Positions 5,457 through 26,270 of a DNA stretch of 64,000 nt are shown here, piece by piece. Source of the DNA: Eubacteriales bacterium. Its GTDB lineage: Bacteria; Bacillota; Clostridia; Oscillospirales; CAG-272. The position numbers and the translations under genes were made by a program. The stretch is from positions 6,532-70,531 of the forward strand of contig JAZNBB010000058.1 of the NCBI GenBank assembly GCA_045586845.1. The letters run 5' to 3'. Below the pieces are notes generated by a model. It was not told the DNA's origin. It did no database searches and saw only the letters and a program-made list of their open reading frames with translations. Every line of letters starts with the position of its first letter. Position 1 is the stretch's first letter.

Positions 5457-6311
5457 TCAGCCTTCCTGCTCAATGCGAGACAGCGTCACAACAACCAGCT
5501 CGGGTCTGTTGTTGAAGCGCAGAGGGAATGAGCTCGCGCCAATACCGCGGCTGACCACCATATTTGCATTCTCGTGGGTGTAAACGCCACTGTCGTACTC
5601 GGGAAGTACGCCTTGTCCCGGTGCATAAAGACCGCCGATCAGCGGCAGACGGAATTGTCCTCCGTGCGCGTGACCCGAAAGAGTCAGATCGATCTGTGCC
5701 TCGGCATAACGCCAAAAATATTCCGGGCGGTGCGAGAGAAGCACGGTAAATCCGTCCGTACCCGCGAGTTCACGCAGTTGCTCCGGCGAATGTAAAACGC
5801 CTTCGTAGTTCTCATCATCCACGCCAAGCAGCGTCATGTGTGCATCGCCACGTGCGATTGTGACTGCCTCGGCGTGCAGAATGTCAACGCCGATCTCGCG
5901 CATCTGTGCTTCGAACTCATAATAATCCGATCGGGGAAGTGCACATTCATGATTGCCCGTCACCATATAGCAGGGTGCGATCTGTACGCAGGCTTGTAAC
6001 AGCTCAAGCACTACGGGCACGTTCGGGTTGCGCGCGTCGATCGTGTCTCCCGTGAACACGATGATATCGGGCTGCGCTTCTGACAGCATGGAAAGCAGCT
6101 TTTGGTTGTCCTTGTCGTATTCCGCACAGTGCAGATCGGCAACCTGTGCTATGCGAAATCCATCAAATTCCTGTGGAAGACGCGTGCTTGCGACGGTATA
6201 GTCGGTACGCTCGAGCGCTGTGTTTGCCCAGATCACCCAACCGCCAAAGGCGAGCGATGCAGCGATCAGGATACACAGCGCCGAGAGCGCAATTATCTTT
6301 TTGTCCGTCAT
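5457..6311 (-). CDS. membrane-anchored metallophosphoesterase (calcineurin-like, YkuE-like)
   Basis: An N-terminal TM helix is followed by the motifs DLH, GDTID, GNHE and GHAHGG. The start overlaps the glnA stop by 1 nt (TAATG). Confidence 0.75.
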   Translation of the reverse strand: MTDKKIIALSALCILIAASLAFGGWVIWANTALERTDYTVASTRLPQEFDGFRIAQVADLHCAEYDKDNQKLLSMLSEAQPDIIVFTGDTIDARNPNVPVVLELLQACVQIAPCYMVTGNHECALPRSDYYEFEAQMREIGVDILHAEAVTIARGDAHMTLLGVDDENYEGVLHSPEQLRELAGTDGFTVLLSHRPEYFWRYAEAQIDLTLSGHAHGGQFRLPLIGGLYAPGQGVLPEYDSGVYTHENANMVVSRGIGASSFPLRFNNRPELVVVTLSRIEQEG

Positions 6312-7735
6312 TACAGGTTGTAGTATTTTTCAAACTCAGCGGGATGAGGAATTGCTGCCATAGCTCTGCATTCCTCGCGCTTTGTCTTAATAAAATTGTT
6401 GATGAGCTCAATGGGGAACACGCCGCCTGCAGTCAGGTAGTCGTGGTCAGCCTCCAGCGCGTCAAGTGCCTCGGGCAGCGAGGTGGGCAAATGGCGCAGC
6501 TTTGCCTTTTCCTCGTCGGAAAGATGATAGAGGTTGACGTCGTAAGGACCCCAACCATTTTTGTGCGGGTCTATCTTGTTTTTGATGCCGTCCAATCCTG
6601 CCATCAGGATAGCGGCATAGCAGAAATATGGGTTGCAGGTCGCATCGGGATTGCGCAGCTCAAAGCGACGCTTGTCGGGCGACTTTGCATAAGCGGGGAT
6701 GCGAATGACTGCAGAGCGGTTGGAGGTAGCATAGCCCACCGTAACAGGTGCCTCAAAGCCGGGTACCAGACGCTTGAACGAGTTGGTGCTGGGATTGGTC
6801 AGCGCGCAAAGGGAAGCGATGTGCGAAAGAATGCCGCCCATGAAGTAGTGCGCGGTCTCACTCAGATGTGCGTAGCCGTTATCATCTGCGAAAATGGGCT
6901 GCCCGTCCTTAAACAGCAGCATATGCACATGCATACCGCTGCCTGCCTCACCTGCAATGGGCTTGGGCATAAAGGTGGCGGATTTGCCGTATTTGAGCGC
7001 GGTGTTATGAATGATATACTTGATCATCATGGTTGCATCCGCCATGTGCACCACCTCGCCAAGCTGCGGTTCGATCTCAAACTGACCGGATGCTGCCACT
7101 TCGGGGTGATGATAGTTGATCTCAATCCCCGCGTCCAGCATATGCATACACATTTCGCTTCTTGCTTCATACGAACGGTCAAAGGGCTTGGCAATATGGT
7201 AAGCTTTCTGCTTGGGAACGATCACGCCGTGTCCCTGGCTGTCGCTGTTCCAGTAGGATTGCTCTGCGTCCACGTGTGCTCCGATATAATTGGGGGAGAC
7301 CTCCCAGCCCACGTTGTCAAACAGATAGAACTCAAACTCGGGCAGGATCTTCATGGTGTCGGCAACACCGCACGCACGCATATAAGCAACAGCCGCCTTG
7401 ATGATATTTCTGGGGTACTGTGCAAGCGGCTTGTTTTCCGGGCTGGCAATGATCATAGCGTCGCCGGTCATGGTCAGCGTGGGAATATCGCAGAAGGGGT
7501 CGATCTGTGCGGTGTTCGGATCGGGAATAAACACCATGTCGCTCTTTTCCACTACAGCGTAGCCGTAGTTGGAGGCATCAAATCCAATGCCGCTTTTCAT
7601 GGTATCCTCTGTAAAGTTCCGGGCGGGAATGGTGACATGGCGGTATTGACCGTTGATATCCACCATTTTGAAATCCACCATTTTGATGCCGTGCTCACGG
7701 ATCATGCTCATGATATCCTGTACGCTTTTTGCCAT
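6311..7735 (-). CDS. glnA: glutamine synthetase, type I
   Basis: 474 aa with a typical GS N-terminal beta-grasp and catalytic-domain blocks (KPIAGEAGSGMHVHM, NPYF). RBS aaaggag. Confidence 0.9.
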   Translation of the reverse strand: MAKSVQDIMSMIREHGIKMVDFKMVDINGQYRHVTIPARNFTEDTMKSGIGFDASNYGYAVVEKSDMVFIPDPNTAQIDPFCDIPTLTMTGDAMIIASPENKPLAQYPRNIIKAAVAYMRACGVADTMKILPEFEFYLFDNVGWEVSPNYIGAHVDAEQSYWNSDSQGHGVIVPKQKAYHIAKPFDRSYEARSEMCMHMLDAGIEINYHHPEVAASGQFEIEPQLGEVVHMADATMMIKYIIHNTALKYGKSATFMPKPIAGEAGSGMHVHMLLFKDGQPIFADDNGYAHLSETAHYFMGGILSHIASLCALTNPSTNSFKRLVPGFEAPVTVGYATSNRSAVIRIPAYAKSPDKRRFELRNPDATCNPYFCYAAILMAGLDGIKNKIDPHKNGWGPYDVNLYHLSDEEKAKLRHLPTSLPEALDALEADHDYLTAGGVFPIELINNFIKTKREECRAMAAIPHPAEFEKYYNL

Positions 7736-7837
7736 TTTTCCATACTCCTTTACTTTGGCTTATTAAATTATATACTCCTATTATATCATATTTTCGTCAG
7801 CCGTCAATAAAAACCGTGAAATTTTTAGCCTTTTCTC

Positions 7838-7866
7838 TTGACAAAAACAAAATTGTCGACTATAAT
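7838..7866 (+). promoter_or_regulatory. sigma-A type promoter (TTGACA-17-TATAAT) for the TetR/fak operon
   Basis: Perfect -35 TTGACA at 7838-7843, a 17-nt spacer, and perfect -10 TATAAT at 7861-7866. Confidence 0.6.
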
Positions 7867-7868
7867 TG

Positions 7869-7892
7869 GATAAGCAACTATGGTTGTTTATC
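7869..7892 (+). promoter_or_regulatory. palindromic candidate operator (TetR-type)
   Basis: GATAAGCAAC-tatg-GTTGTTTATC has 9 of 10 positions symmetric. It lies immediately downstream of the -10 box and upstream of the TetR gene. Confidence 0.4.
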
Positions 7893-7922
7893 TTTGGGTA
7901 TAAAACAGAGAAAGGAGCAAAT

Positions 7923-8456
7923 ATGGATCTGCGCATCATAAAAACCAAAAATCAGATCAAGCAGGCATTTTTGTCGCTGCGCAATAAGTATTCACTGGAA
8001 AAGATTAAGGTCAAGGACATCTGTGAGCTTGCCATGATCAATAAAACCACGTTTTATAAGCATTATGTGGATTCATTTGCACTTGCCAATGAGCTGGAAG
8101 AGAGCTGCATGGAAAAGCTGATGAACGCATTTTCCGAAAAAAAGAGCTTATTCGAGTCCCCCAAGGCTTACGTACAGGGCTTGTTGGGTGCGACCGAAAA
8201 ATATGCAGAGGAGCTGCGCCAGGTCTACCGCGACAGAAAGGACACCTTTGTCTCCAAGCTTGAGCAACGGCTGATGCAGGCTTGCGAGAGCGATGAGAGC
8301 AGCGAACAGCGTATTGCAGCTACGTTTATGATCAGCGGCACGGCGCAGGTGCTTGGCCAATGGTTGTTCGGTGAGGAGGGCAAACGCCCCGATCTTGGTG
8401 CCATTGCGACATACATTGAACGCATGTCGGGAAGCCTGATTCCCGCAACCAAATAA
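7923..8456 (+). CDS. TetR/AcrR-family regulator (dihydroxyacetone-kinase-regulator-like subfamily)
   Basis: The N-terminal HTH reads IKVKDICELAMINKTTFYKHY. I place the start at MDLRIIKTKN, which follows RBS aaaggag. The 7866 start in the ORF track overlaps the -10 box at 7861-7866. Confidence 0.7.
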   Translation: MDLRIIKTKNQIKQAFLSLRNKYSLEKIKVKDICELAMINKTTFYKHYVDSFALANELEESCMEKLMNAFSEKKSLFESPKAYVQGLLGATEKYAEELRQVYRDRKDTFVSKLEQRLMQACESDESSEQRIAATFMISGTAQVLGQWLFGEEGKRPDLGAIATYIERMSGSLIPATK

Positions 8457-8469
8457 AGGACGGAGATTT

Positions 8470-10116
8470 ATGGAAACGATAAGAATTGACGGCAGCGTCA
8501 TTCGCACGCTGCTGATGGGGAGTGTGTGCGGTATCCGTATGCATATAGAGGAGATCAATGATCTCAACGTTTTTCCCGTGCCGGACGGCGATACCGGTAC
8601 AAACATGACCAAAACGCTGGAGGGTGGTCTTTCAAGACTTGACGAGCAGGGAACGCTTGGAGAGCAAATGGGCGCATTTGCTAAGGGCTGTGTGCTGGGT
8701 GCACGCGGCAACTCGGGTGTCATTCTTTCACAGTATATGGCGGGGGTGGCGGCTGCCGTTGCATATAAGGAAAGCATCAGCGCAGGCGAGCTGGCGCACG
8801 CATTGACCGCGGGGGTTGATCGCGCGTATGCAGCTGTAGCGAACCCTGTGGAGGGTACGATACTGACCGTTTTCCGAGAAAGTTCGGAATACGCGGCACG
8901 GCACGCGGATGAGAACACCACCGCTGAACAGCTTTTGGAAATGGTGATAGAAAGTGCCAAGACGGCACTTGCCAAGACCAAGGAAATGCTGCCCGTGCTT
9001 GCACAGGCAGATGTTGTCGATAGTGGTGGCGCAGGGTATCTTGCTATGCTTGTGGGTATGTATGATGCGCTGACGGGTAAGGTTACCGATCTTGCCGGCT
9101 ACGATCGCACCGAGAGCGTAAAGACCTCGATCAATTACGATTTGTTTACCACAGACAGCGTGCCGGAGTGGGGGTACTGTACCGAGGCATTGGTCAGATT
9201 GCAGCGTGCCAAGGGAGACCCCGAGACATTTGATGTGGATGCATTCAGGGCAGCACTCGAAGCAAAAGATTGCAACTCTATCGTTGCGCTGCGTGACGGT
9301 GACTTGCTCAAGGTGCACGCGCATACCATGACCCCCTCCGATATACTGGTACTGTGTCAGGTATATGGTGAGTTTTTGGAGGTCAAGATCGAGAATATGA
9401 GTCTGCAGCATTCCGAGAGAACGGTTGCAGCGAAAAAGAAAAAGGTGCACAAGCCCTATGGGGTGATCGCTGTTGCAAGCGGTGATGGTATGCACGCGCT
9501 CTTTACCGAGCTTGGTGCAGATATTATCATTGATGGCGGACAGACTGCCAACCCAAGCGCTGAGGATTTTGTGGACGCGATCAATCAACTGGACGTCGAT
9601 CACGTGCTGCTTTTGCCCAATAACGGCAACATTCTGTTGACTGCGCAGCAGGCTGCAGGGCTTTGCGAGGATATGGATGTGCACGTTGTGCCCACCAAGT
9701 CATTCCCTCAGGGTTATGCAGCACTGGCTGTTTTCAATGCAGCTATTGAGGACGCAGACGAGCAGGTAGCAGATATGACCGAGGCAAAAAGTGCGGTTGT
9801 GTCGGGTGAGATCACCTATGCGATCCGTGACACCGTAATCGGTGACGTAGAGGTCAAAAAGGGCGAATCGATCGGTATCCTTGATGGCAAGTTGGTGTGC
9901 TCATGTGTCGATGAGAAAGCTGCTATGTGTGAGATGCTCTCGCAGATTAAGGACATTGAGGACAGAGAGATACTGACCCTGTTTGTGGGTGCGGATGTGA
10001 CAGAGGAGCAGAGAGTGGCAATGACCGAGGCGATTGAAGAGGCATACGAGGACTTGACCGTAGACGTGTTCACAGGCGGTCAACAGGTATACCGCTATCT
10101 TGTCGCAGTTGAATAA
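8470..10116 (+). CDS. DAK2 domain-containing protein, YloV/FakA-like fatty acid kinase subunit
   Basis: Has the DAK2 signature PDGDTGTNM. Its 548-aa length is the same as the YloV/FakA family. It is followed by plsX and a DegV gene. Confidence 0.8.
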   Translation: METIRIDGSVIRTLLMGSVCGIRMHIEEINDLNVFPVPDGDTGTNMTKTLEGGLSRLDEQGTLGEQMGAFAKGCVLGARGNSGVILSQYMAGVAAAVAYKESISAGELAHALTAGVDRAYAAVANPVEGTILTVFRESSEYAARHADENTTAEQLLEMVIESAKTALAKTKEMLPVLAQADVVDSGGAGYLAMLVGMYDALTGKVTDLAGYDRTESVKTSINYDLFTTDSVPEWGYCTEALVRLQRAKGDPETFDVDAFRAALEAKDCNSIVALRDGDLLKVHAHTMTPSDILVLCQVYGEFLEVKIENMSLQHSERTVAAKKKKVHKPYGVIAVASGDGMHALFTELGADIIIDGGQTANPSAEDFVDAINQLDVDHVLLLPNNGNILLTAQQAAGLCEDMDVHVVPTKSFPQGYAALAVFNAAIEDADEQVADMTEAKSAVVSGEITYAIRDTVIGDVEVKKGESIGILDGKLVCSCVDEKAAMCEMLSQIKDIEDREILTLFVGADVTEEQRVAMTEAIEEAYEDLTVDVFTGGQQVYRYLVAVE

Positions 10117-10136
10117 TTGAACATAAGGAGTGTATT

Positions 10137-11120
10137 ATGGCAACATATAAGATCGCAATAGACACACTGGGCAGCGATAAGGGTCCCGAAACCATCGTGC
10201 AGGGGGCCTTGATGGCACTTGCCGAGAATCCCGAGCTTTCGGTGGCGCTGTTCGGTGATGAGCAGGTCATTCGCGCATACCTTGAAAAGGTCGAGCATGA
10301 TCCCGAGCGTATCGAGATCGTGCACGCCCCCGATGCCATCACCAATTATGATAATCCCATGGAAGCCATTTTCAAAAAGACCGACGCATCTCTGGTCAAG
10401 GCACTGCAAGCACTTGCCGCACGCGACGATCTGCTGGGGTTGATCAACGCGGGCAGTACGGGTGCGCTGATTGCGGGTGCTTTGCGTTACGTACCCGCCA
10501 AGCCCTTGCGCAGACCTGCGCTGGCAGCCATTCTGCCCGCAGCAAAGGGCGGCTTTACCTGCCTTGTGGACACGGGCGCAAACATCGACTGCACAGCATC
10601 TATGCTGGTGGACTTTGCGCACATGGGCTCGGATCTGATGCAGCAATGCTACGGCATTGAAAGCCCCAGAATCGGTCTGCTCTCCAACGGTGCAGAGGCG
10701 ACCAAGGGCAACAAGCTGGTCAAGGAGACCCACGCGCTGCTCAAGGCAGACCAAAAGCTCAACTTTGTGGGCAACATTGAGGGTACAAACGCACTCTCGG
10801 GAGACTGCGACGTACTGGTGGCTGACGGCTTTGCGGGCAACCAGGTGCTTAAGAACTCCGAGGGCATTGCAAAGAGAATTATCACGGACATTGTGGTGTA
10901 CGGTAAAAAGACGGGTAACCCCGAGATCATGAAGCTGGTCGGATACCTGATGAGCATTTACGATTTCAACTCGCTGGGCGGTGCACAGCTGCTTGGCGTT
11001 GGTAAGCCGATCATCAAGGCGCATGGAGCCGCAAACGCAGATTCGATCAAAAATACCTCTGCCATCATGCTCAATGTAGCCAGAAACAAGGCGATGTTTG
11101 ACGGTAAAGACATAAGATAA
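10137..11120 (+). CDS. plsX: phosphate acyltransferase PlsX
   Basis: The N-terminus IAIDTLGSDKGP and the C-terminal block HGAANA... are typical of PlsX. RBS taaggag. Confidence 0.9.
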   Translation: MATYKIAIDTLGSDKGPETIVQGALMALAENPELSVALFGDEQVIRAYLEKVEHDPERIEIVHAPDAITNYDNPMEAIFKKTDASLVKALQALAARDDLLGLINAGSTGALIAGALRYVPAKPLRRPALAAILPAAKGGFTCLVDTGANIDCTASMLVDFAHMGSDLMQQCYGIESPRIGLLSNGAEATKGNKLVKETHALLKADQKLNFVGNIEGTNALSGDCDVLVADGFAGNQVLKNSEGIAKRIITDIVVYGKKTGNPEIMKLVGYLMSIYDFNSLGGAQLLGVGKPIIKAHGAANADSIKNTSAIMLNVARNKAMFDGKDIR

Positions 11121-11131
11121 GGAGACAGGTT

Positions 11132-12034
11132 ATGGAAATCAAAAGAAAAGTGATGTGCACATCCACGGGCTGTATCGAGTACGCCCCCGAACGCTACAAG
11201 AAGTACGACATCGACATCATCCGCATTCACGTACATTTCAAGGACAAGGAGTACTTAGAGGGGCTTGATCTTGATCCCGATGCATTCTACAAAGAGCTGG
11301 AAACGCTGGAGGATCCCAAGAACAATCTTCCCAGAACCGCAATGCCTACCGAGGACGAGATCAAGGCTTGCTTTGACAAGGCATACGAGGAAGGCTGCAA
11401 GGAGGTCATCGTGATCGCGCTGAGTGCATATCTCGGCGGTACCTGGAACCTCATCCGTCTGGTCGGCGAACAGTACAAGGATAAGATGGATATCTACGTT
11501 ATCGACTCCAAGATCGCTTGCTTTGGCGAGGGTATGCTTGCCATCAAGGCGGCAGAAATGGTGCAGAAGGGCGTGCCCACCGAGACTATTCTCAAGGAGA
11601 TCAACTGGATGATCAAGCATCAGGAATTTTTGGGCGTGGATGCAAAGCTTGACTATTTGATCTATAATGGCAGACTCAAGGGCGGCAAGGCGCTGATGGG
11701 CAAGATGCTCAACATTTGTCCCGTTGTACATTTCACGCATGACGGTGAGCTTTGTGCGCTGCAGAGCGTCCGCACTCCCAAGAAAGCATTGGCAAGAACC
11801 TGTGAGATCTTGAAGGAAATGATCGGTGACCGTTCACCTGAGGATTATTTGCTTTGGCACACCTATACCGGTCCCTCGCTGCTTGAAGAACTTGTCGAAA
11901 TCGAAAAGAAATATGATATTCACACCAATCATGAAAAGGTGATCACTTCTCCCGTCAGCGGTTGTCACAACGGTCCCTGGCTGGCAGGCTACGGACTTTT
12001 GTTCCTGCGCCGCGATGATGAGCCTCTTGAATAA
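11132..12034 (+). CDS. DegV family fatty-acid-binding protein (FakB-like)
   Basis: Length, overall pattern and the N-terminal C..TG....P....k.y.i block match DegV proteins, and the gene sits in a FakA/PlsX context. Confidence 0.8.
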   Translation: MEIKRKVMCTSTGCIEYAPERYKKYDIDIIRIHVHFKDKEYLEGLDLDPDAFYKELETLEDPKNNLPRTAMPTEDEIKACFDKAYEEGCKEVIVIALSAYLGGTWNLIRLVGEQYKDKMDIYVIDSKIACFGEGMLAIKAAEMVQKGVPTETILKEINWMIKHQEFLGVDAKLDYLIYNGRLKGGKALMGKMLNICPVVHFTHDGELCALQSVRTPKKALARTCEILKEMIGDRSPEDYLLWHTYTGPSLLEELVEIEKKYDIHTNHEKVITSPVSGCHNGPWLAGYGLLFLRRDDEPLE

Positions 12035-12036
12035 TC

Positions 12037-13173
12037 ATGCTTATGGAAAACGTAACGATCAACCGGGTCAAGACATCCTCGCAGAAAAAAGCGTTCGTTC
12101 AATTTCCTCTCAGACTCTATAAGAACAATCCGTTTTTTGTGCCGCCCTTGTATGGGGATGAAATGGCGCAATTCAAAAAGAATCATGCCTACAGTGATAC
12201 CTGCGACACCGCGTTTTTCCTTGCCATGAAAGGAAAAACGGTAGTGGGTCGCATCCAAGGTATTTTGCAGCGGCAGTCCAACGAGCTGCGAGGCGAGAAG
12301 CGCGTACGCTTTACCCGCTTTGACGCCATTGACGATCTCGCAGTTGCCAAAGCGCTGTTTGATGCCGTGGAAAACTGGGCGAAAGAGCAAGGCATGGATA
12401 CGGTCTGCGGACCTCTTGGTTATAGTGACTTGGAACGAGAAGGGCTGCTGATTGAAGGCTTTGATCAGCTTTCTACTTTTGAGGAACAGTACAATTATGA
12501 CTACTATCCCAAGCTGCTCGAGGCTTGCGGCTACGGTAAGGAGATCGACTGGTATGAGTTCCGCCTGCGCGCACCCCAGACCCCCAATCCTATGCTCGGC
12601 AGAGTGGCAGAGCGCGCGCTGGAGCTTTCAAAGCTGCACGTGGTGGACAGCTCCAAAATGTCCAAGAAAAAGTACATCCAGACCTATAAGGACGGCTTTT
12701 TCGATTGCCTGGACGAGTGCTACGCCCACCTGTACGGTGCCGTGCCGTTCACCGAGAATATGAAAAAGCAGATGATCGACCAGTTCATGCTGATTCTCAA
12801 TAAAGAATACCTCATGATCCTGTGCGACAAAGACGAGCGCGTGGTCGCGTTTGCCTTGTGCATTCCCGGTATCGGCGAGGCGCTGCAAAAGAGCGGGGGA
12901 CGGCTGACCCCGGGCGCGCTCGTCCGTGTGATGCGCGCTGCAAAAAAGCCGCGCACGCTGGATCTTGGGCTGATTGCGGTGCGCCCGCAATACCAGGCAG
13001 CAGGCGTCAACGCCGTTATGCTGCACCGCATGATCGAATATCTGCAGGCAGGCAAGGTCGAATACGCCGAAACCAATCTCAATCTCGAAACCAATACGCA
13101 GGTCATGGCGCAATGGAAATATTTTGACGCTACCCAACATAAACGCCGCAGATCCTATATTAAAACAATTTAG
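12037..13173 (+). CDS. uncharacterised double-GNAT-like acyltransferase family protein
   Basis: Matches a widespread roughly 370-aa family annotated as GNAT N-acetyltransferase. Recognisable blocks are F..FP..LYK..P.FVPPL, VGRI, GP.GYSD.EREGLL.EGF and YNYDYYP. The start lies 3 nt after the degV stop. Confidence 0.55.
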   Translation: MLMENVTINRVKTSSQKKAFVQFPLRLYKNNPFFVPPLYGDEMAQFKKNHAYSDTCDTAFFLAMKGKTVVGRIQGILQRQSNELRGEKRVRFTRFDAIDDLAVAKALFDAVENWAKEQGMDTVCGPLGYSDLEREGLLIEGFDQLSTFEEQYNYDYYPKLLEACGYGKEIDWYEFRLRAPQTPNPMLGRVAERALELSKLHVVDSSKMSKKKYIQTYKDGFFDCLDECYAHLYGAVPFTENMKKQMIDQFMLILNKEYLMILCDKDERVVAFALCIPGIGEALQKSGGRLTPGALVRVMRAAKKPRTLDLGLIAVRPQYQAAGVNAVMLHRMIEYLQAGKVEYAETNLNLETNTQVMAQWKYFDATQHKRRRSYIKTI

Positions 13174-13175
13174 CC

Positions 13176-13204
13176 GTAGGGACCGGCGTCCTCGACGGTC
13201 CTAC
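13176..13204. repeat. GTAG-headed palindromic unit (type A, loop GCGTCCTCGA)
   Basis: GTAGGGACCG-GCGTCCTCGA-CGGTCCTAC, located between the GNAT-like gene and the carrier protein gene. Confidence 0.7.
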
Positions 13205-13228
13205 TCTACAACAAGAAAGGATACAACT

Positions 13229-13450
13229 ATGCTTGAAAAACTCACCGAAATCATTGGTCGCGTGAACCCCGGAATTGACGTTTCCACCGTCACCCCCGAG
13301 ACCAAGCTCATGGAAGACCTTAAGTTGGACTCTCTGTCCATTATGCTGCTGGCTATGGAGATCGAGGCAGCGTTTGGCTTCCAGTTCAACGAGCCCGTAC
13401 AGTTCGTCACCGTACAGGACGTGTGCGATTACCTTGCCGCTAAAGCGTAA
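13229..13450 (+). CDS. acyl carrier protein (divergent, non-AcpP-like)
   Basis: 73 aa with the phosphopantetheine attachment motif LDSLS in MEDLKLDSLSIMLLAMEIE. The start MLEKLTEII was chosen in place of the 13124 ORF-track start, whose extension overlaps the upstream gene and the repeat. Confidence 0.7.
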   Translation: MLEKLTEIIGRVNPGIDVSTVTPETKLMEDLKLDSLSIMLLAMEIEAAFGFQFNEPVQFVTVQDVCDYLAAKA

Positions 13451-13461
13451 TATCCCCAAAA

Positions 13462-13495
13462 AGAACGGTCTGCATGGTGCAGGTCGTTCTTTTTG
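13462..13495 (+). terminator. rho-independent terminator after the carrier protein gene
   Basis: AGAACGGTCTGCA-tgg-TGCAGGTCGTTCT followed by TTTTT. Confidence 0.7.
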
Positions 13496-13636
13496 CTTTT
13501 AAAAAATGAATATCACAACTTGTAGGGAGCTACATCGCGCCGCGTTTTTGAAATATTCCCGAAAAATCTTGAGTGCTCTTGATTTTACGGAAAATATTTG
13601 ATATAATAGCATACAACGACAAGAAAGGGGAGCGCA

Positions 13637-14221
13637 ATGCTATCATTCGACATTTCCCAAGAGGTCTTTACCTGTGCGGTCTACCCGGGTGATCCTGCGC
13701 CTGCGCGACAGGTGCTTGCAAGCCTTGACGCGGGTGACGTGTGCAATCTGACTGCGTTTTCCATGTGTGCGCACAACGGCACGCATATAGACGCACCCGC
13801 GCATTTTATCGCGGGCGGCAAGACCGTGGACGCTCTGCCGCTTGACGCGCTGATCGGCAATGCCATCATAATCTCGCATGTGGGCGATATCACGGCGTCC
13901 GACGCACACCGCATGCTGGAAATGGCGGGAAATATCAAAAAGCTGCTGATCAAGGGCAACGCCACGCTGACGCTTGAGGCTGCCGAGGTGCTTGCAGAGG
14001 CGGACATCGAGCTTTTTGGCAACGAATCGCAAACGGTTGGCCCCGAATCCGCACCCATGGCGGTGCATAAACGCTTGCTTGGCGCGAATGTCGTGCTGCT
14101 GGAGGGCATACGCCTTTCACACGTACCCGACGGAGAATATCTGCTTTGTGCAGCCCCGCTAAACCTCGGCGGTGCGGACGGTGCACCCTGCCGCGCAGTT
14201 TTGATCGATTTATCTGAGTAA
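13637..14221 (+). CDS. cyclase family protein (kynurenine formamidase-like fold)
   Basis: Has the HNGTHIDAPAHF motif characteristic of the putative cyclase family. RBS aaagggga. Confidence 0.7.
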   Translation: MLSFDISQEVFTCAVYPGDPAPARQVLASLDAGDVCNLTAFSMCAHNGTHIDAPAHFIAGGKTVDALPLDALIGNAIIISHVGDITASDAHRMLEMAGNIKKLLIKGNATLTLEAAEVLAEADIELFGNESQTVGPESAPMAVHKRLLGANVVLLEGIRLSHVPDGEYLLCAAPLNLGGADGAPCRAVLIDLSE

Positions 14222-14233
14222 AGGAGAGAAAAC

Positions 14234-14785
14234 ATGACTGAATTTCTTGCAATGCTTGAATCCGTTTCGCCGATCTTAGTCTGCTTTCTGATCTGTGCCG
14301 CAAAGATCCTGGAGATCACCATTCAATCGCTCAAAACCTGCATGATGGTCAAGGGGCAGCGGCTCAAAGCCGCAGGCTTGGGCTTTGTGGAGTGCATCAT
14401 CTGGGGTCTGGTGGTGTCGGGTGTCATCGGCACGCTGGGCGATAACCCCTTGCGCCTGGTCTTTTACTGCGCGGGCTACGCCGCGGGTCTGTCCCTCGGC
14501 TCTACCATTGAGGGCAAGATCGCGCTCGGCACGTCCAACTTAGAGCTGATCGCAAGCGACGAGAGCACCGAGAAGATCACGGCTTACTTAAAAGAGAACG
14601 ATCTTGGCTATACCGTCCTGCCCGGACACGGCGCAACCGAGAAGATGAATATGATCTTTATCGTGCTGCCCAGAAAGCGTACCAAGCGCGTGCTTGGCGA
14701 GATCCGTAAGTGTTGCGATAATAAGGTCTTTGTAGTCGCATCCGAGGTCAGCAAGTATGCCGGCGGCTACGGTATGGTGAAGTAA
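14234..14785 (+). CDS. UPF0316/DUF2179 family membrane protein
   Basis: Three N-terminal TM helices are followed by a C-terminal soluble domain. The overall pattern resembles the YebE/UPF0316 family. Confidence 0.6.
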   Translation: MTEFLAMLESVSPILVCFLICAAKILEITIQSLKTCMMVKGQRLKAAGLGFVECIIWGLVVSGVIGTLGDNPLRLVFYCAGYAAGLSLGSTIEGKIALGTSNLELIASDESTEKITAYLKENDLGYTVLPGHGATEKMNMIFIVLPRKRTKRVLGEIRKCCDNKVFVVASEVSKYAGGYGMVK

Positions 14786-22462: not shown

Positions 22463-23608
22463 TTACACTTGCTGTTGCTTATTCATGGCTTGCACAATGC
22501 GATAATACTCAAAGAACTTATAAACGTTGTACCCCTCGGGAGCGGTCATTTCGCAATAGGTCTTGCCAAAGCTGAACAAGAGAAAGCGTCTGCCGCGCAT
22601 GGAAAGTTCTGTGATCTCGGAGAAGGGTACGTGCCAATCACCGCAGGTAATGCCGTAGGGGGTCATGATAAAGCGACCTTCGGTAAGCGTATGCTCCTCG
22701 TGGCTTTCCACAGTATATACTCTTGCATTCTCGGCAAAGATTTCGGTACCGTTTTCCACAAGCGACTGTGCCGCCGTGTGCTGTCTTGCCGCAAGAGAAG
22801 TCAGGGTGGTGTCAGGTGCGCCGTGCAGCATACCATAAGTGTCATAGGTAAAGAAGCCTTGGCAAGCGGTACATCTTACGCGGTCTCCCTTGGAGTACAG
22901 CGTATCGATCTTGCCGCAGAAGGGGCAAATATACAGCAGGTTTTCCATGCTCTCGGCAAGTTTCTTCCCCTTGTATTTGCAAGGCTTTTGCGACTGGCGT
23001 GCGTACGCGTCCTCAAAAAGATCCTCTCGAATGATGCGGTTGACCTCGTCCTCGCTCATAGCGGCGATCTGCTCTGCGGAATAGACGTTTACGGGCTCAC
23101 CGTGCACGTAGCCTCTGCGTGTGTTTTTGGTGCTCCACATGGGGCTTGCAAAGTAGCCGCCCGAGATGCGGTAGGTCACAAGTCCGCAGCGTGCCGCCTT
23201 GACAAGCCCGCCCGTGGTAGGTGCGATGTGCCCTGTCAAGCCGTCCCAGGAGCGCAATCCTTCCGCAAACATACACACGTTTGCGCCCTTGCGTACCTTG
23301 CGCAAAATATCAATGATGGCGGATGCCGCCGTGGTGCCTTTCTTGCGCAGAATGGGTGCGAGCAAGTAATTAACTAACTTATATCCATGCTTCCAGCGTG
23401 CAATGTGCTCGCTTGCCACAAAGTACATTTGTTTGGGAAAGGAGCTGCTCACGAATAATGGGTCATAATCGGTGACGTGATTAGAAAGCACGATATAGTG
23501 ATCGGGCAGGTTTTTTGCCACCTTGCAGGTATATCCGAATTTGATAAAGCAGAAAACTCTGACCGGGAAGCGCAACAGCCTCCAAAATAAATTGAGTCGT
23601 TTTTGCAC
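22463..23608 (-). CDS. lysophospholipid (1-acyl-glycerol-3-phosphate) acyltransferase family protein with C-terminal extension
   Basis: Has the acyltransferase HxxxxD motif (SNHVTDYD) and a later FAEG(L)R block. The C-terminal half contains a CPFC...C..C zinc-ribbon-like motif. The start is GTG, with RBS ggagga. Confidence 0.65.
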   Translation of the reverse strand: MQKRLNLFWRLLRFPVRVFCFIKFGYTCKVAKNLPDHYIVLSNHVTDYDPLFVSSSFPKQMYFVASEHIARWKHGYKLVNYLLAPILRKKGTTAASAIIDILRKVRKGANVCMFAEGLRSWDGLTGHIAPTTGGLVKAARCGLVTYRISGGYFASPMWSTKNTRRGYVHGEPVNVYSAEQIAAMSEDEVNRIIREDLFEDAYARQSQKPCKYKGKKLAESMENLLYICPFCGKIDTLYSKGDRVRCTACQGFFTYDTYGMLHGAPDTTLTSLAARQHTAAQSLVENGTEIFAENARVYTVESHEEHTLTEGRFIMTPYGITCGDWHVPFSEITELSMRGRRFLLFSFGKTYCEMTAPEGYNVYKFFEYYRIVQAMNKQQQV

Positions 23609-25449: not shown

Positions 25450-25971
25450 GTGATTCTCGATATGGGTCCCATGCTGCGAGGAGAGGTGGACATACTTACT
25501 GTGGATTATATGCTTAAACCGGAGCCTTTGCAGGGTGTGGAATTTACGGCGGATGCTCACGTGGTCGGACAGGTGACCGATACGGGCGGATATATGCGTC
25601 TCGTTTTAGAAGCGGATATGCCATACAGTACCGTCTGCGCAAGATGTCTTGATAAGGTGGAAGGTATTTACACAGTCTGCTTTGAGCGTACCGTAGCGGA
25701 TGAGCATTCCTTGTCCCAGGAACAGATCGACGACAACGTGGATGAGTACATCATTATAAAAGACGGTCAGTTGGATATCGACGAGCAGCTGGTGGAGGAA
25801 ATGATCCTTTCGTTTCCGACCAAGTTCCTTTGCGATGAAGATTGTCCCGGGCTTTGCCCCAAATGCGGTAAGCAGCTTAAACACGGTGCGTGCGGTTGCA
25901 AAACCAAGGAGATCGACCCCAGACTTGCAGTGCTTGCGCAGCTGCTTGAACAGAATGGGGACGAAGAATAA
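25450..25971 (+). CDS. YceD/DUF177 family protein
   Basis: Has the C-terminal CDEDCPGLCPKCG zinc-ribbon block and sits directly upstream of rpmF, as in many bacteria. The start is either GTG 25450 (RBS aaggggg) or ATG 25462. Confidence 0.7.
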   Translation: MILDMGPMLRGEVDILTVDYMLKPEPLQGVEFTADAHVVGQVTDTGGYMRLVLEADMPYSTVCARCLDKVEGIYTVCFERTVADEHSLSQEQIDDNVDEYIIIKDGQLDIDEQLVEEMILSFPTKFLCDEDCPGLCPKCGKQLKHGACGCKTKEIDPRLAVLAQLLEQNGDEE

Positions 25972-26072
25972 TTCAGAATGTAACCGAGTTTCGGTAACAG
26001 ATATAAGTTTATAAAAAATATTGACATATTCAGGTGTACGAGCCTATTGTACACCGAAGAGGAGGTGTAATT

Positions 26073-26270
26073 ATGGCAGTACCGAAGAGAAAGGTATCCA
26101 AGGCACGCAGAGACAAGAGAAGATCTAACAACTCCAAGCTCGCTATGCCCGGTATGGTAAAGTGCTCCAATCCCGAATGCAATGAAATGGTATTGGCACA
26201 TCGTGTTTGCAAGGCTTGCGGTTTCTACGGCGGCAAGCAGGTAATCACCCTGAAGCAGAAGGAAGACTAA
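26073..26270 (+). CDS. rpmF: 50S ribosomal protein L32
   Basis: [18 protein letters not shown] plus the CxxC...CxxC zinc ribbon. RBS gaggagg. Confidence 0.9.

Follow-up and report, generated by a model that had tools for sequence, protein, structure and literature searches.

The bacterial ceramide synthases (bCerS) and the specialised acyl carrier proteins (ACPs) of fatty acid uptake and sphingolipid synthesis are the described systems closest to a pair of genes found in a stretch of 64,000 nucleotides of DNA from an Eubacteriales bacterium (GenBank assembly GCA_045586845.1, contig JAZNBB010000058.1, positions 6,532 to 70,531), referred to here as the window. This pair encodes a 378-aa protein of the GNAT superfamily and a 73-aa ACP, and lies at the end of an operon that also encodes the two subunits of a fatty acid kinase (FakA and FakB) and the acyltransferase PlsX.

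The bCerS gene has been described under a number of names. The aca genes, which include CC_1154 and the yghO of Escherichia coli (ECD_02850), encode the N-acyltransferase needed for the synthesis of dihydroceramide (Olea-Ozuna et al., PMC9386255), and CC_1154 is the same gene as bcerS, or CCNA_01212, of Caulobacter (PMC9393093). The Caulobacter enzyme is found in the cytoplasm, bound peripherally to the membrane, and acylates 3-ketosphinganine (PMC11087976), and the deletion of the homologue BF9343_4218 in Bacteroides fragilis (delta-cerS) leads to the accumulation of 3-ketosphinganine (3-KDS; bioRxiv 10.1101/2023.05.23.541633). The characterised members of the family N-acylate a long-chain amine, either 3-ketosphinganine or sphinganine.

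The FeeM/FeeL and OlsB-type N-acyl amino acid synthases, which are related to the GNATs, form amide-linked lipids with long acyl chains drawn from acyl-ACP. FeeM is encoded together with its own ACP, and the enzymes of the FeeM and OlsB types are single-domain proteins of other families. In the sphingolipid synthesis of the Rhodobacteria, a dedicated activation step, catalysed by the acyl-AMP ligase AasR, loads a specialised ACP, AcpR, and the genes for the two lie close to that of an N-acyltransferase of the YghO family (PMC9386255). Enterococcus faecalis has an atypical ACP, AcpB, which is cotranscribed with plsX, and which is a far better acceptor than AcpA, the ACP of type II fatty acid synthesis (FASII), for the acyl chains that the PlsX of this species takes from acyl-phosphate (PMC6509188). 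This second carrier is tied to the Fak- and PlsX-dependent use of fatty acids from outside the cell, and the role shown for it is regulation through FabT and incorporation into phospholipid, rather than the supply of an N-acyltransferase (PMC6509188).

The acyltransferase and its family

The 378-aa protein is assigned by its sequence to the YghO/bCerS family. Such proteins are classed with E. coli YghO, and the window protein is 28% identical to the full-length YghO of a non-K-12 strain, where the gene is intact, over 380 aa (BLASTP, E 2e-45), while the family profile matches YghO with a probability of 100% (hhalign, E 3e-50). The window protein shares 35% identity with a Bacteroidales member of the family, which is itself 27% identical to YghO. 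The likeness extends over the full length of the proteins (approximately 375-380 aa), and includes a tandem-GNAT fold and the lack of a transmembrane segment, the maximum 19-residue hydropathy of the window protein being 1.15 (KD19). On the other hand, the window protein is only 28% identical to YghO, and falls in a separate clostridial clade.

Given that YghO is the counterpart of the Caulobacter bCerS, long-chain N-acylation is the known chemistry of this family. The preliminary description of the locus, which had been based on the sequence, had found no demonstrated substrate for the family, and had considered the production of an N-acylated lipid to be a new function for it, and neither statement holds. 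The family is large, with 5613 matches in a word index and 4748 clusters at 50% identity (E <= 1e-3), and its members are named in the databases only as "hypothetical protein" or "GNAT superfamily N-acetyltransferase".

The conserved blocks that had been pointed out in the window protein are all present, with FVQFPLRLYKNNPFFVPPL at residues 20-38, VGRI at residues 70-73, GPLGYSDLEREGLLIEGF at residues 125-142, and YNYDYYP at residues 152-158, and they represent the best-conserved columns in an alignment of 45 members of the family that are 29-54% identical. The protein has a weak match to PF00583 in Pfam (residues 248-341), and no match to any NCBIfam model.

The double-GNAT architecture that had been proposed is confirmed at the level of a predicted structure. 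The AlphaFold model based on a diverse alignment has a pLDDT (predicted local distance difference test) of 94.5 and a pTM (predicted template modelling score) of 0.91, and was used in preference to a mediocre model from a shallow alignment (pLDDT 76). The top Foldseek matches of this model in the PDB are all tandem GNATs, including MAB_4324 (7q3a), the glucosamine (GlcN) N-acetyltransferase of Clostridium acetobutylicum (5kf1), a tandem GNAT of the clavulanate pathway (2wpw), and MshD (2c27), with VipF and Eis also being recovered. These matches have query TM-scores of 0.55-0.62 and an identity of 10-13%, and although the solved proteins share the two-domain architecture and, in the case of MshD, a cofactor motif in the C-terminal domain, they are acetyl-CoA users with unrelated substrates. 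No relative was recovered by a search of the PDB with the single sequence, and a profile search returned a weak match to the C-terminal cofactor motif of generic GNATs (such as RimI and YpeA; best E 0.002), so that neither search found a solved structure for the sequence family itself.

The C-terminal GNAT domain aligns with the RimI-type cofactor motif, and retains the Q-x-x-G of the beta4-alpha3 region (Q320 and G323), while Asn353, in the same domain, is invariant across the family. On the evidence of the alignment, these residues would suit the binding of a phosphopantetheine thioester.

A number of other families were considered for this protein. Membership of the N-myristoyltransferase (NMT), FemX, or aminoacyl-phosphatidylglycerol synthase (L-PGS) families was rejected, with no family-specific Pfam match being found. 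The comparison with NMT and FemX-like folds that had been suggested is also unfavourable, with FemX and L-PGS ranking well below the tandem GNATs of the acetyltransferase type in Foldseek (query TM-score 0.3-0.4), and NMT matching only as a sequence profile, with an E of 0.28. Membership of the OlsB and hm-NAS families was rejected as well, given the lack of a PF13444 match at E <= 0.01. The window protein also differs from the FeeM and OlsB types in having no match to PF13444 or to another such Pfam family, and none of these enzymes is found among its top Foldseek matches.

The yghO gene of the non-K-12 E. coli FDN-24 (locus L088, 9001-14604) adjoins genes annotated as a fatty acyl-AMP ligase, an NAD(P)-dependent oxidoreductase, an ACP, and spt. 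The E. coli gene is thus found, like the window gene, in the company of a specialised ACP, together with an acyl-activating enzyme. In E. coli K-12 (L087, 9044-11341), an IS5 element stands in place of the 5' end of yghO, and the neighbouring sphingolipid genes, for the acyl-AMP ligase, the oxidoreductase, the ACP, and Spt, are missing.

The family also includes a number of composite proteins. In the Bacteroidales (Phocaeicola; L081, 8001-9647, and also L082), for example, a YghO-family domain is fused to a C-terminal MsrA, a peptide-methionine sulfoxide reductase (PF01625), in a protein of 548 aa. This fusion (P0193/P0283) forms a cluster of 127 members, and one member sequence is found on up to 58 contigs. 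A second form of 784 aa (P0170, in L086 at 6001-8355) contains two YghO-like units in tandem, each half being approximately 35% identical to E. coli YghO.

The operon and its conservation

The genes of the window unit are arranged on the + strand in the order TetR-FakA-PlsX-FakB-GNAT-ACP (window 7866-13450), together with the following features:

7838..7866, + strand: putative promoter of the sigma-70 type, TTGACA-17-TATAAT (consensus scan, 12/12 match)
7866..8456, + strand: TetR-like regulator, first gene of the unit, probable ATG at 7923 (open reading frame, ORF; weak Pfam match to a helix-turn-helix domain)
8470..10116, + strand: FakA, catalytic subunit of the fatty acid kinase, with Dak2, FakA_M, and FakA_C domains (PF02734, PF21645, PF13684; TIGR03599, E 8e-163)
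10137..11120, + strand: PlsX, acyl-ACP:phosphate acyltransferase (TIGR00182, 261 bits, cut-off 243; PF02504, E 7e-76)
11132..12034, + strand: FakB, fatty-acid-binding subunit of the DegV type (PF02645, E 4e-55; TIGR00762, E 5e-61)
12037..13173, + strand: tandem-GNAT N-acyltransferase of the YghO/bCerS family, 378 aa (YghO homology, AlphaFold, Foldseek)
13229..13450, + strand: ACP, 73 aa, with the phosphopantetheine Ser35 in an LDSL motif (PF00550, E 1e-8)
13457..13500, + strand: intrinsic terminator directly 3' of the ACP gene, with an 18-bp stem followed by a T-run (sequence and RNA fold)
13579-13607: promoter-like site ahead of a cyclase gene (consensus scan)

The six genes most likely form a single transcription unit, given the perfect match to the promoter consensus at 7838-7866, the gap of only 2 nt between the stop codon of FakB and the start of the GNAT, and the strong terminator that follows the ACP. 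The ORF coordinates agree with the genes of 378 and 73 codons and the spacing of 55 nt given in the preliminary description, and with its placement of the pair behind PlsX and FakB. The ATG of the ACP, at 13229, is preceded by a good match to the Shine-Dalgarno sequence (AAGGA).

A cyclase/arylformamidase-like gene and a gene for a DUF5698/DUF2179 membrane protein (13637-14785) were rejected as members of the unit, from which they are separated by the terminator and by a promoter-like site of their own. In the related genomes, other DNA (0.9-4 kb) lies between the ACP and these two genes, which also places them outside the unit.

The context of the GNAT was scanned in one genome per species, which produced a set of 80 loci in which the GNAT is 55-88% identical to the window protein and the surrounding ORFs were searched with the window proteins. 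All of these loci belong to uncultured Clostridia, among them Oscillospiraceae and Christensenellaceae, except for those of three metagenome-assembled genomes (MAGs) of the Sphaerochaetaceae. FakA, PlsX, FakB, and the ACP are all found around the GNAT in 52 of the 80 loci, one of which (L056) presents the shuffled order PlsX-GNAT-ACP-FakB-FakA, and a subset of these genes remains in nine others that are truncated at the end of a contig or rearranged, such as L028, with a FakA fragment followed by PlsX, GNAT, and ACP, and L068, with FakA-GNAT-ACP and no PlsX. Four loci have the form FakA-FakB-GNAT, without either PlsX or the ACP, and in one (L073) the GNAT is followed by a phosphopantetheinyl transferase of the Sfp type (7194-7829; PF01648 and PF22624), with FakB approximately 2.4 kb downstream. 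In the remaining 14 loci, the GNAT is alone in unrelated surroundings. The ACP lies immediately downstream of the GNAT in 60 of the 80, and the TetR-like gene upstream of FakA is kept in loci L001-L025 (phmmer).

In a neighbour-joining tree, the 80 GNATs form a single clade, within which the solitary and the FakA-FakB-GNAT forms constitute a derived subclade. At 49% identity, the order FakA-FakB-GNAT-PlsX is still found (L093), and in the relatives at 44%, 38%, and approximately 30% identity, including the Bacteroidales GNAT-MsrA fusion, neither Fak nor ACP neighbours were found. These contexts indicate that the link with Fak and PlsX belongs to one clostridial clade, rather than to the family as a whole, and that it withstands rearrangement.

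Two of the Sphaerochaetaceae (Spirochaetota) MAGs, which come from the rumen, contain a complete FakA-PlsX-FakB-GNAT-ACP unit (L027, 1733-6773, and L029, 1-4449) at approximately 61% identity to the clostridial genes. Either the whole unit has been transferred horizontally, or these MAGs are mis-binned.

Some of the stand-alone GNATs have transporters as their neighbours. In three loci, they are flanked by transporters of the MatE/MOP type (L038, 3458-4816; L066, 7138-8478; and L070, 4803-6149), and in three others (L060, L069, and L071, at approximately 7396-11347) the GNAT is followed by a protein that joins a TMEM164-family domain to an ABC ATPase, and by an ABC_tran_2 protein. These neighbours may hint at the export or the further processing of a lipid product.

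Elsewhere in the window, a 381-aa acyltransferase of the PlsC/AGPAT type is encoded on the - strand (22463-23608), with the motifs NHVTDYD and FAEGLRS and an extra C-terminal region, and it is possible that this protein consumes acyl-ACP made by the operon. A YceD-like gene and rpmF (25462-26270, with rpmF at 26073-26270) are found without plsX and acpP after them. In the Firmicutes, rpmF is commonly followed by plsX-acpP. The plsX and the only ACP gene seen in the 64-kb window are both located in the Fak operon.

The carrier protein

The 73-aa ORF encodes a specialised ACP that is linked to PlsX. It scores approximately 46 bits against the NCBIfam models of AcpP, below all of their cut-offs of 66-106 (46.5 against 71 for the best model, and 41 against 70 for TIGR00517), and the window contains no fab genes, whereas a housekeeping AcpP would be expected to reach such a cut-off and to lie with fab genes or rnc. 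This agrees with the divergent, non-canonical character that had been attributed to it from the context of its Ser motif, quoted as KLDSLSIMLLAMEIE.

The canonical AcpP of a clostridial fabH-acpP-fabK-fabD-fabG-fabF cluster provides the most informative comparison. The two proteins are 43% identical and have N- and C-terminal sequence in common, which indicates that the operon ACP descends from AcpP. In helix II, the operon ACP has DSLSIMLLAMEIEAAF, whereas the AcpP of the FASII cluster has DSLDLFELIMAFEDEF, most of the acidic residues having been lost, and the net charge is -7, as against -13. The loop that follows helix II is also two residues shorter in the operon ACP. Both the de-acidified helix II and the shorter loop are conserved across 60 operon ACPs.

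By description, the operon ACP resembles the E. faecalis AcpB in being a second type of ACP, one whose helix II is altered and whose gene shares a transcription unit with plsX, but the E. faecalis operon has no GNAT. The operon ACP shares with the AcpR of the Rhodobacteria a hydrophobic-style helix II (ESIKVMDLLMML vs DSLSIMLLAMEI) and a dedicated activation of the fatty acid, but this activation depends on an acyl-AMP ligase in the case of AcpR, rather than on FakAB and PlsX. An orthologous relationship with E. coli AcpR was rejected, given that the two sequences have no significant similarity (E 0.39).

Donor, acceptor, and product

The identities of the genes, the family and the fold of the GNAT, the structure of the operon, and its conservation in other genomes were observed here, and they can be joined in a single reading, in which a soluble or peripheral N-acyltransferase of the YghO/bCerS family has, in this clade of Clostridia of the gut, been recruited into a fatty-acid-scavenging operon, with the acyl-ACP of this operon as its donor and an amide-linked lipid as its product. 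This reading is proposed tentatively, with somewhat less than even confidence. FakB would bind an exogenous fatty acid, which FakA would phosphorylate to the acyl-phosphate, and PlsX would move the chain onto the operon's own ACP, with its AcpP ancestry and de-acidified helix II. The C-terminal GNAT domain of the YghO-like enzyme would then bind the acyl-phosphopantetheine thioester, and the enzyme would pass the long acyl chain on to an amine in a lipid-like acceptor, to form a ceramide-like or other N-acyl lipid.

The long-chain nature of the transferred group and the use of acyl-ACP, rather than acyl-CoA, are both inferred. The Firmicutes that rely on Fak generally lack the synthesis of long-chain acyl-CoA. 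The case for the acyl-ACP donor rests on this, on the logic of the operon, and on the retained pantetheine-type motif, while the coupling with Fak, PlsX, and the ACP is supported by the 52 loci with the full set of genes, by the survival of the linkage to the GNAT through the rearrangements of L056, L068, and L093, by the phosphopantetheinyl transferase of L073, and by the complete unit in the two Sphaerochaetaceae MAGs. The preference of the E. faecalis PlsX for AcpB over AcpA is also in favour of an acyl-ACP donor (PMC6509188). The suggestion of the preliminary description that N-acyl transfer is fed by Fak and PlsX is plausible on this evidence.

A number of observations weigh against this reading. 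No nearby ACP is found in 19 of the 80 close relatives (the 14 solitary GNATs, the four FakA-FakB-GNAT loci, and L073), nor in any of the five more distant relatives examined (<=44% identity), which indicates that the GNAT does not require an adjacent ACP. The ACP is accompanied by PlsX in 56 of the 57 ACP-bearing loci that are not cut at the contig start, and in the loci uncut by contig ends the two genes are either both present or both absent, with L068 as the sole exception. The ACP may simply be the partner of PlsX in phospholipid synthesis, and PlsX explains its presence at least as well as the GNAT does. In addition, the characterised members of the family are described as acyl-CoA N-acyltransferases, and the specialised ACP of the proteobacterial system serves Spt, for which acyl-AcpR is the substrate, and not the N-acyltransferase (PMC9386255). 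Finally, no homologues of the acceptor-forming Spt, CerR, or AasR (E <= 1e-3) were found in the 64-kb window or within approximately 6 kb of the GNAT in the 80 loci. The pairing of the GNAT with the ACP that had been suggested is thus upheld as an adjacency in 60 of the 80 related genomes, but not as a bond peculiar to these two genes, with the ACP tracking PlsX as tightly as it tracks the GNAT, and with AcpB as a precedent.

In an alternative explanation, the ACP is a carrier linked to PlsX, either of the AcpB kind or as the only ACP of a cell that lacks FASII, which takes exogenous chains to PlsC for the synthesis of phospholipid, while the GNAT is co-regulated with the uptake of fatty acids and uses another donor, such as acyl-CoA. 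The coincidence of the ACP and PlsX in essentially all of the untruncated loci, and the FakA-FakB-GNAT loci that lack both, are to be expected under this explanation, as are the descent from AcpP indicated by the 43% identity, and the rpmF without its plsX-acpP, which suggests that this pair moved into the Fak operon. It is also in accordance with the cotranscription of acpB with plsX and the preference for AcpB as the acceptor from acyl-phosphate (PMC6509188), and with the name of acyl-CoA N-acyltransferase given to the family enzyme (PMC9386255). The arrangement of the genes is less favourable to it, however, since the ACP is always found right behind the GNAT, rather than behind PlsX, the GNAT and the ACP are kept without PlsX in L068, and a phosphopantetheinyl transferase follows the GNAT in L073. 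Acyl-ACP would also be the thioester available to a Firmicute of the kind discussed above. All in all, this explanation is a serious but rather unlikely one.

A true ceramide synthase, with Spt encoded elsewhere in the genome, or with sphingoid bases from the diet, the host, or the Bacteroidota being N-acylated with scavenged fatty acids, would account for the full-length YghO/bCerS homology, at a distance that equals that between the proteobacterial and the Bacteroidales members. The Firmicutes are not known to be producers of sphingolipids, and the hosts of the window-type operon are Gram-positive anaerobes of this kind, with a GNAT that sits in the FakA-PlsX-FakB-ACP operon, rather than near spt, cerR, or aasR. 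In many cases, as in the Bacteroidota, bCerS is encoded away from spt (PMC11334938), and a salvage role has been proposed for CerS in bacteria (PMC11324152), but labelled sphinganine was taken up in mice almost only by Bacteroides, with the Firmicutes in the negative fraction (PMC7910519). Salvage of sphinganine was rejected as the leading explanation on the basis of this last result. The claim of a ceramide synthase is further lowered by the failure to find Spt, CerR, and AasR in the window or in the 80 loci, and is also opposed by the breadth of the family, with its thousands of clusters, so that it is considered improbable. For the same reasons of an absent neighbouring spt, hosts that are not known producers, and a non-assimilating fraction, a sphingoid base is possible as the acceptor, but is not favoured. 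An ordinary acetyl-CoA-dependent acetyltransferase of a sugar, a small molecule, or a protein, whose place in the operon is fortuitous or serves regulation, such as the acetylation of Fak, PlsX, or the ACP, is less probable still, and is regarded as a very unlikely explanation. It can draw on the nearest solved structures, the tandem GNATs GlcN N-acetyltransferase, MshD, Eis, and VipF, which depend on acetyl-CoA, and on the weak match to PF00583. At 10-13% identity, however, the structural matches reflect a likeness of fold alone, while the sequence places the protein in the YghO/bCerS family, and the synteny with Fak and PlsX outlasts several independent rearrangements, down to 49% identity. 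The four new lysine acetyltransferases (KATs) found by a screen in E. coli are reportedly RimI, YiaC, YjaB, and PhnO, and YghO is not one of them. YghO was only a candidate in this screen, as one of the GNAT acetyltransferase genes that were overexpressed (PMC6199490).

The proposal of an acyl-ACP-fed N-acyltransferase can also be stated in its full form, as a hitherto undescribed pathway independent of Spt, by which Gram-positive anaerobes of the gut and some Sphaerochaetaceae would make ceramide-like or other N-acyl amide lipids. The Fak system, PlsX, and a dedicated ACP would supply fatty acids scavenged from the host or the diet, and the enzyme of the bCerS family would accept them from acyl-ACP, in place of acyl-CoA. 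In this complete form, the proposal is possible, but doubtful.

The enzyme family (bCerS) and the kind of auxiliary carrier that the ACP resembles are already known. What looks new is that, in Gram-positive anaerobes and without neighbouring sphingolipid genes, an N-acyltransferase of the bCerS family has become fixed in an operon with Fak, PlsX, and an ACP. In the literature that was searchable here, nothing was found on the combination of Fak, PlsX, an ACP, and a GNAT, and nothing relevant on that of a ceramide synthase and a fatty acid kinase.

The identification of the bacterial ceramide synthase is recent, and work on it has been done in the sphingolipid producers Caulobacter and Bacteroides. 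The well-conserved clostridial branch, found in the Fak operon of uncultured bacteria of the gut and rumen, suggests that the long-chain N-acylation of this family is used more widely than for ceramide, and offers a candidate route by which Fak-dependent Firmicutes may use the fatty acids of the diet to make amide lipids, some of which are signals active on the host. The annotation is also corrected, with the "GNAT N-acetyltransferases" and "hypothetical proteins" becoming acyltransferases of the YghO/bCerS family, and the small ORF a specialised ACP linked to PlsX. If the acyl-ACP-fed pathway is confirmed, this would be the first case of dependence on acyl-ACP among the bacterial ceramide synthases, and a new source of amide lipids that are potentially active on the host.

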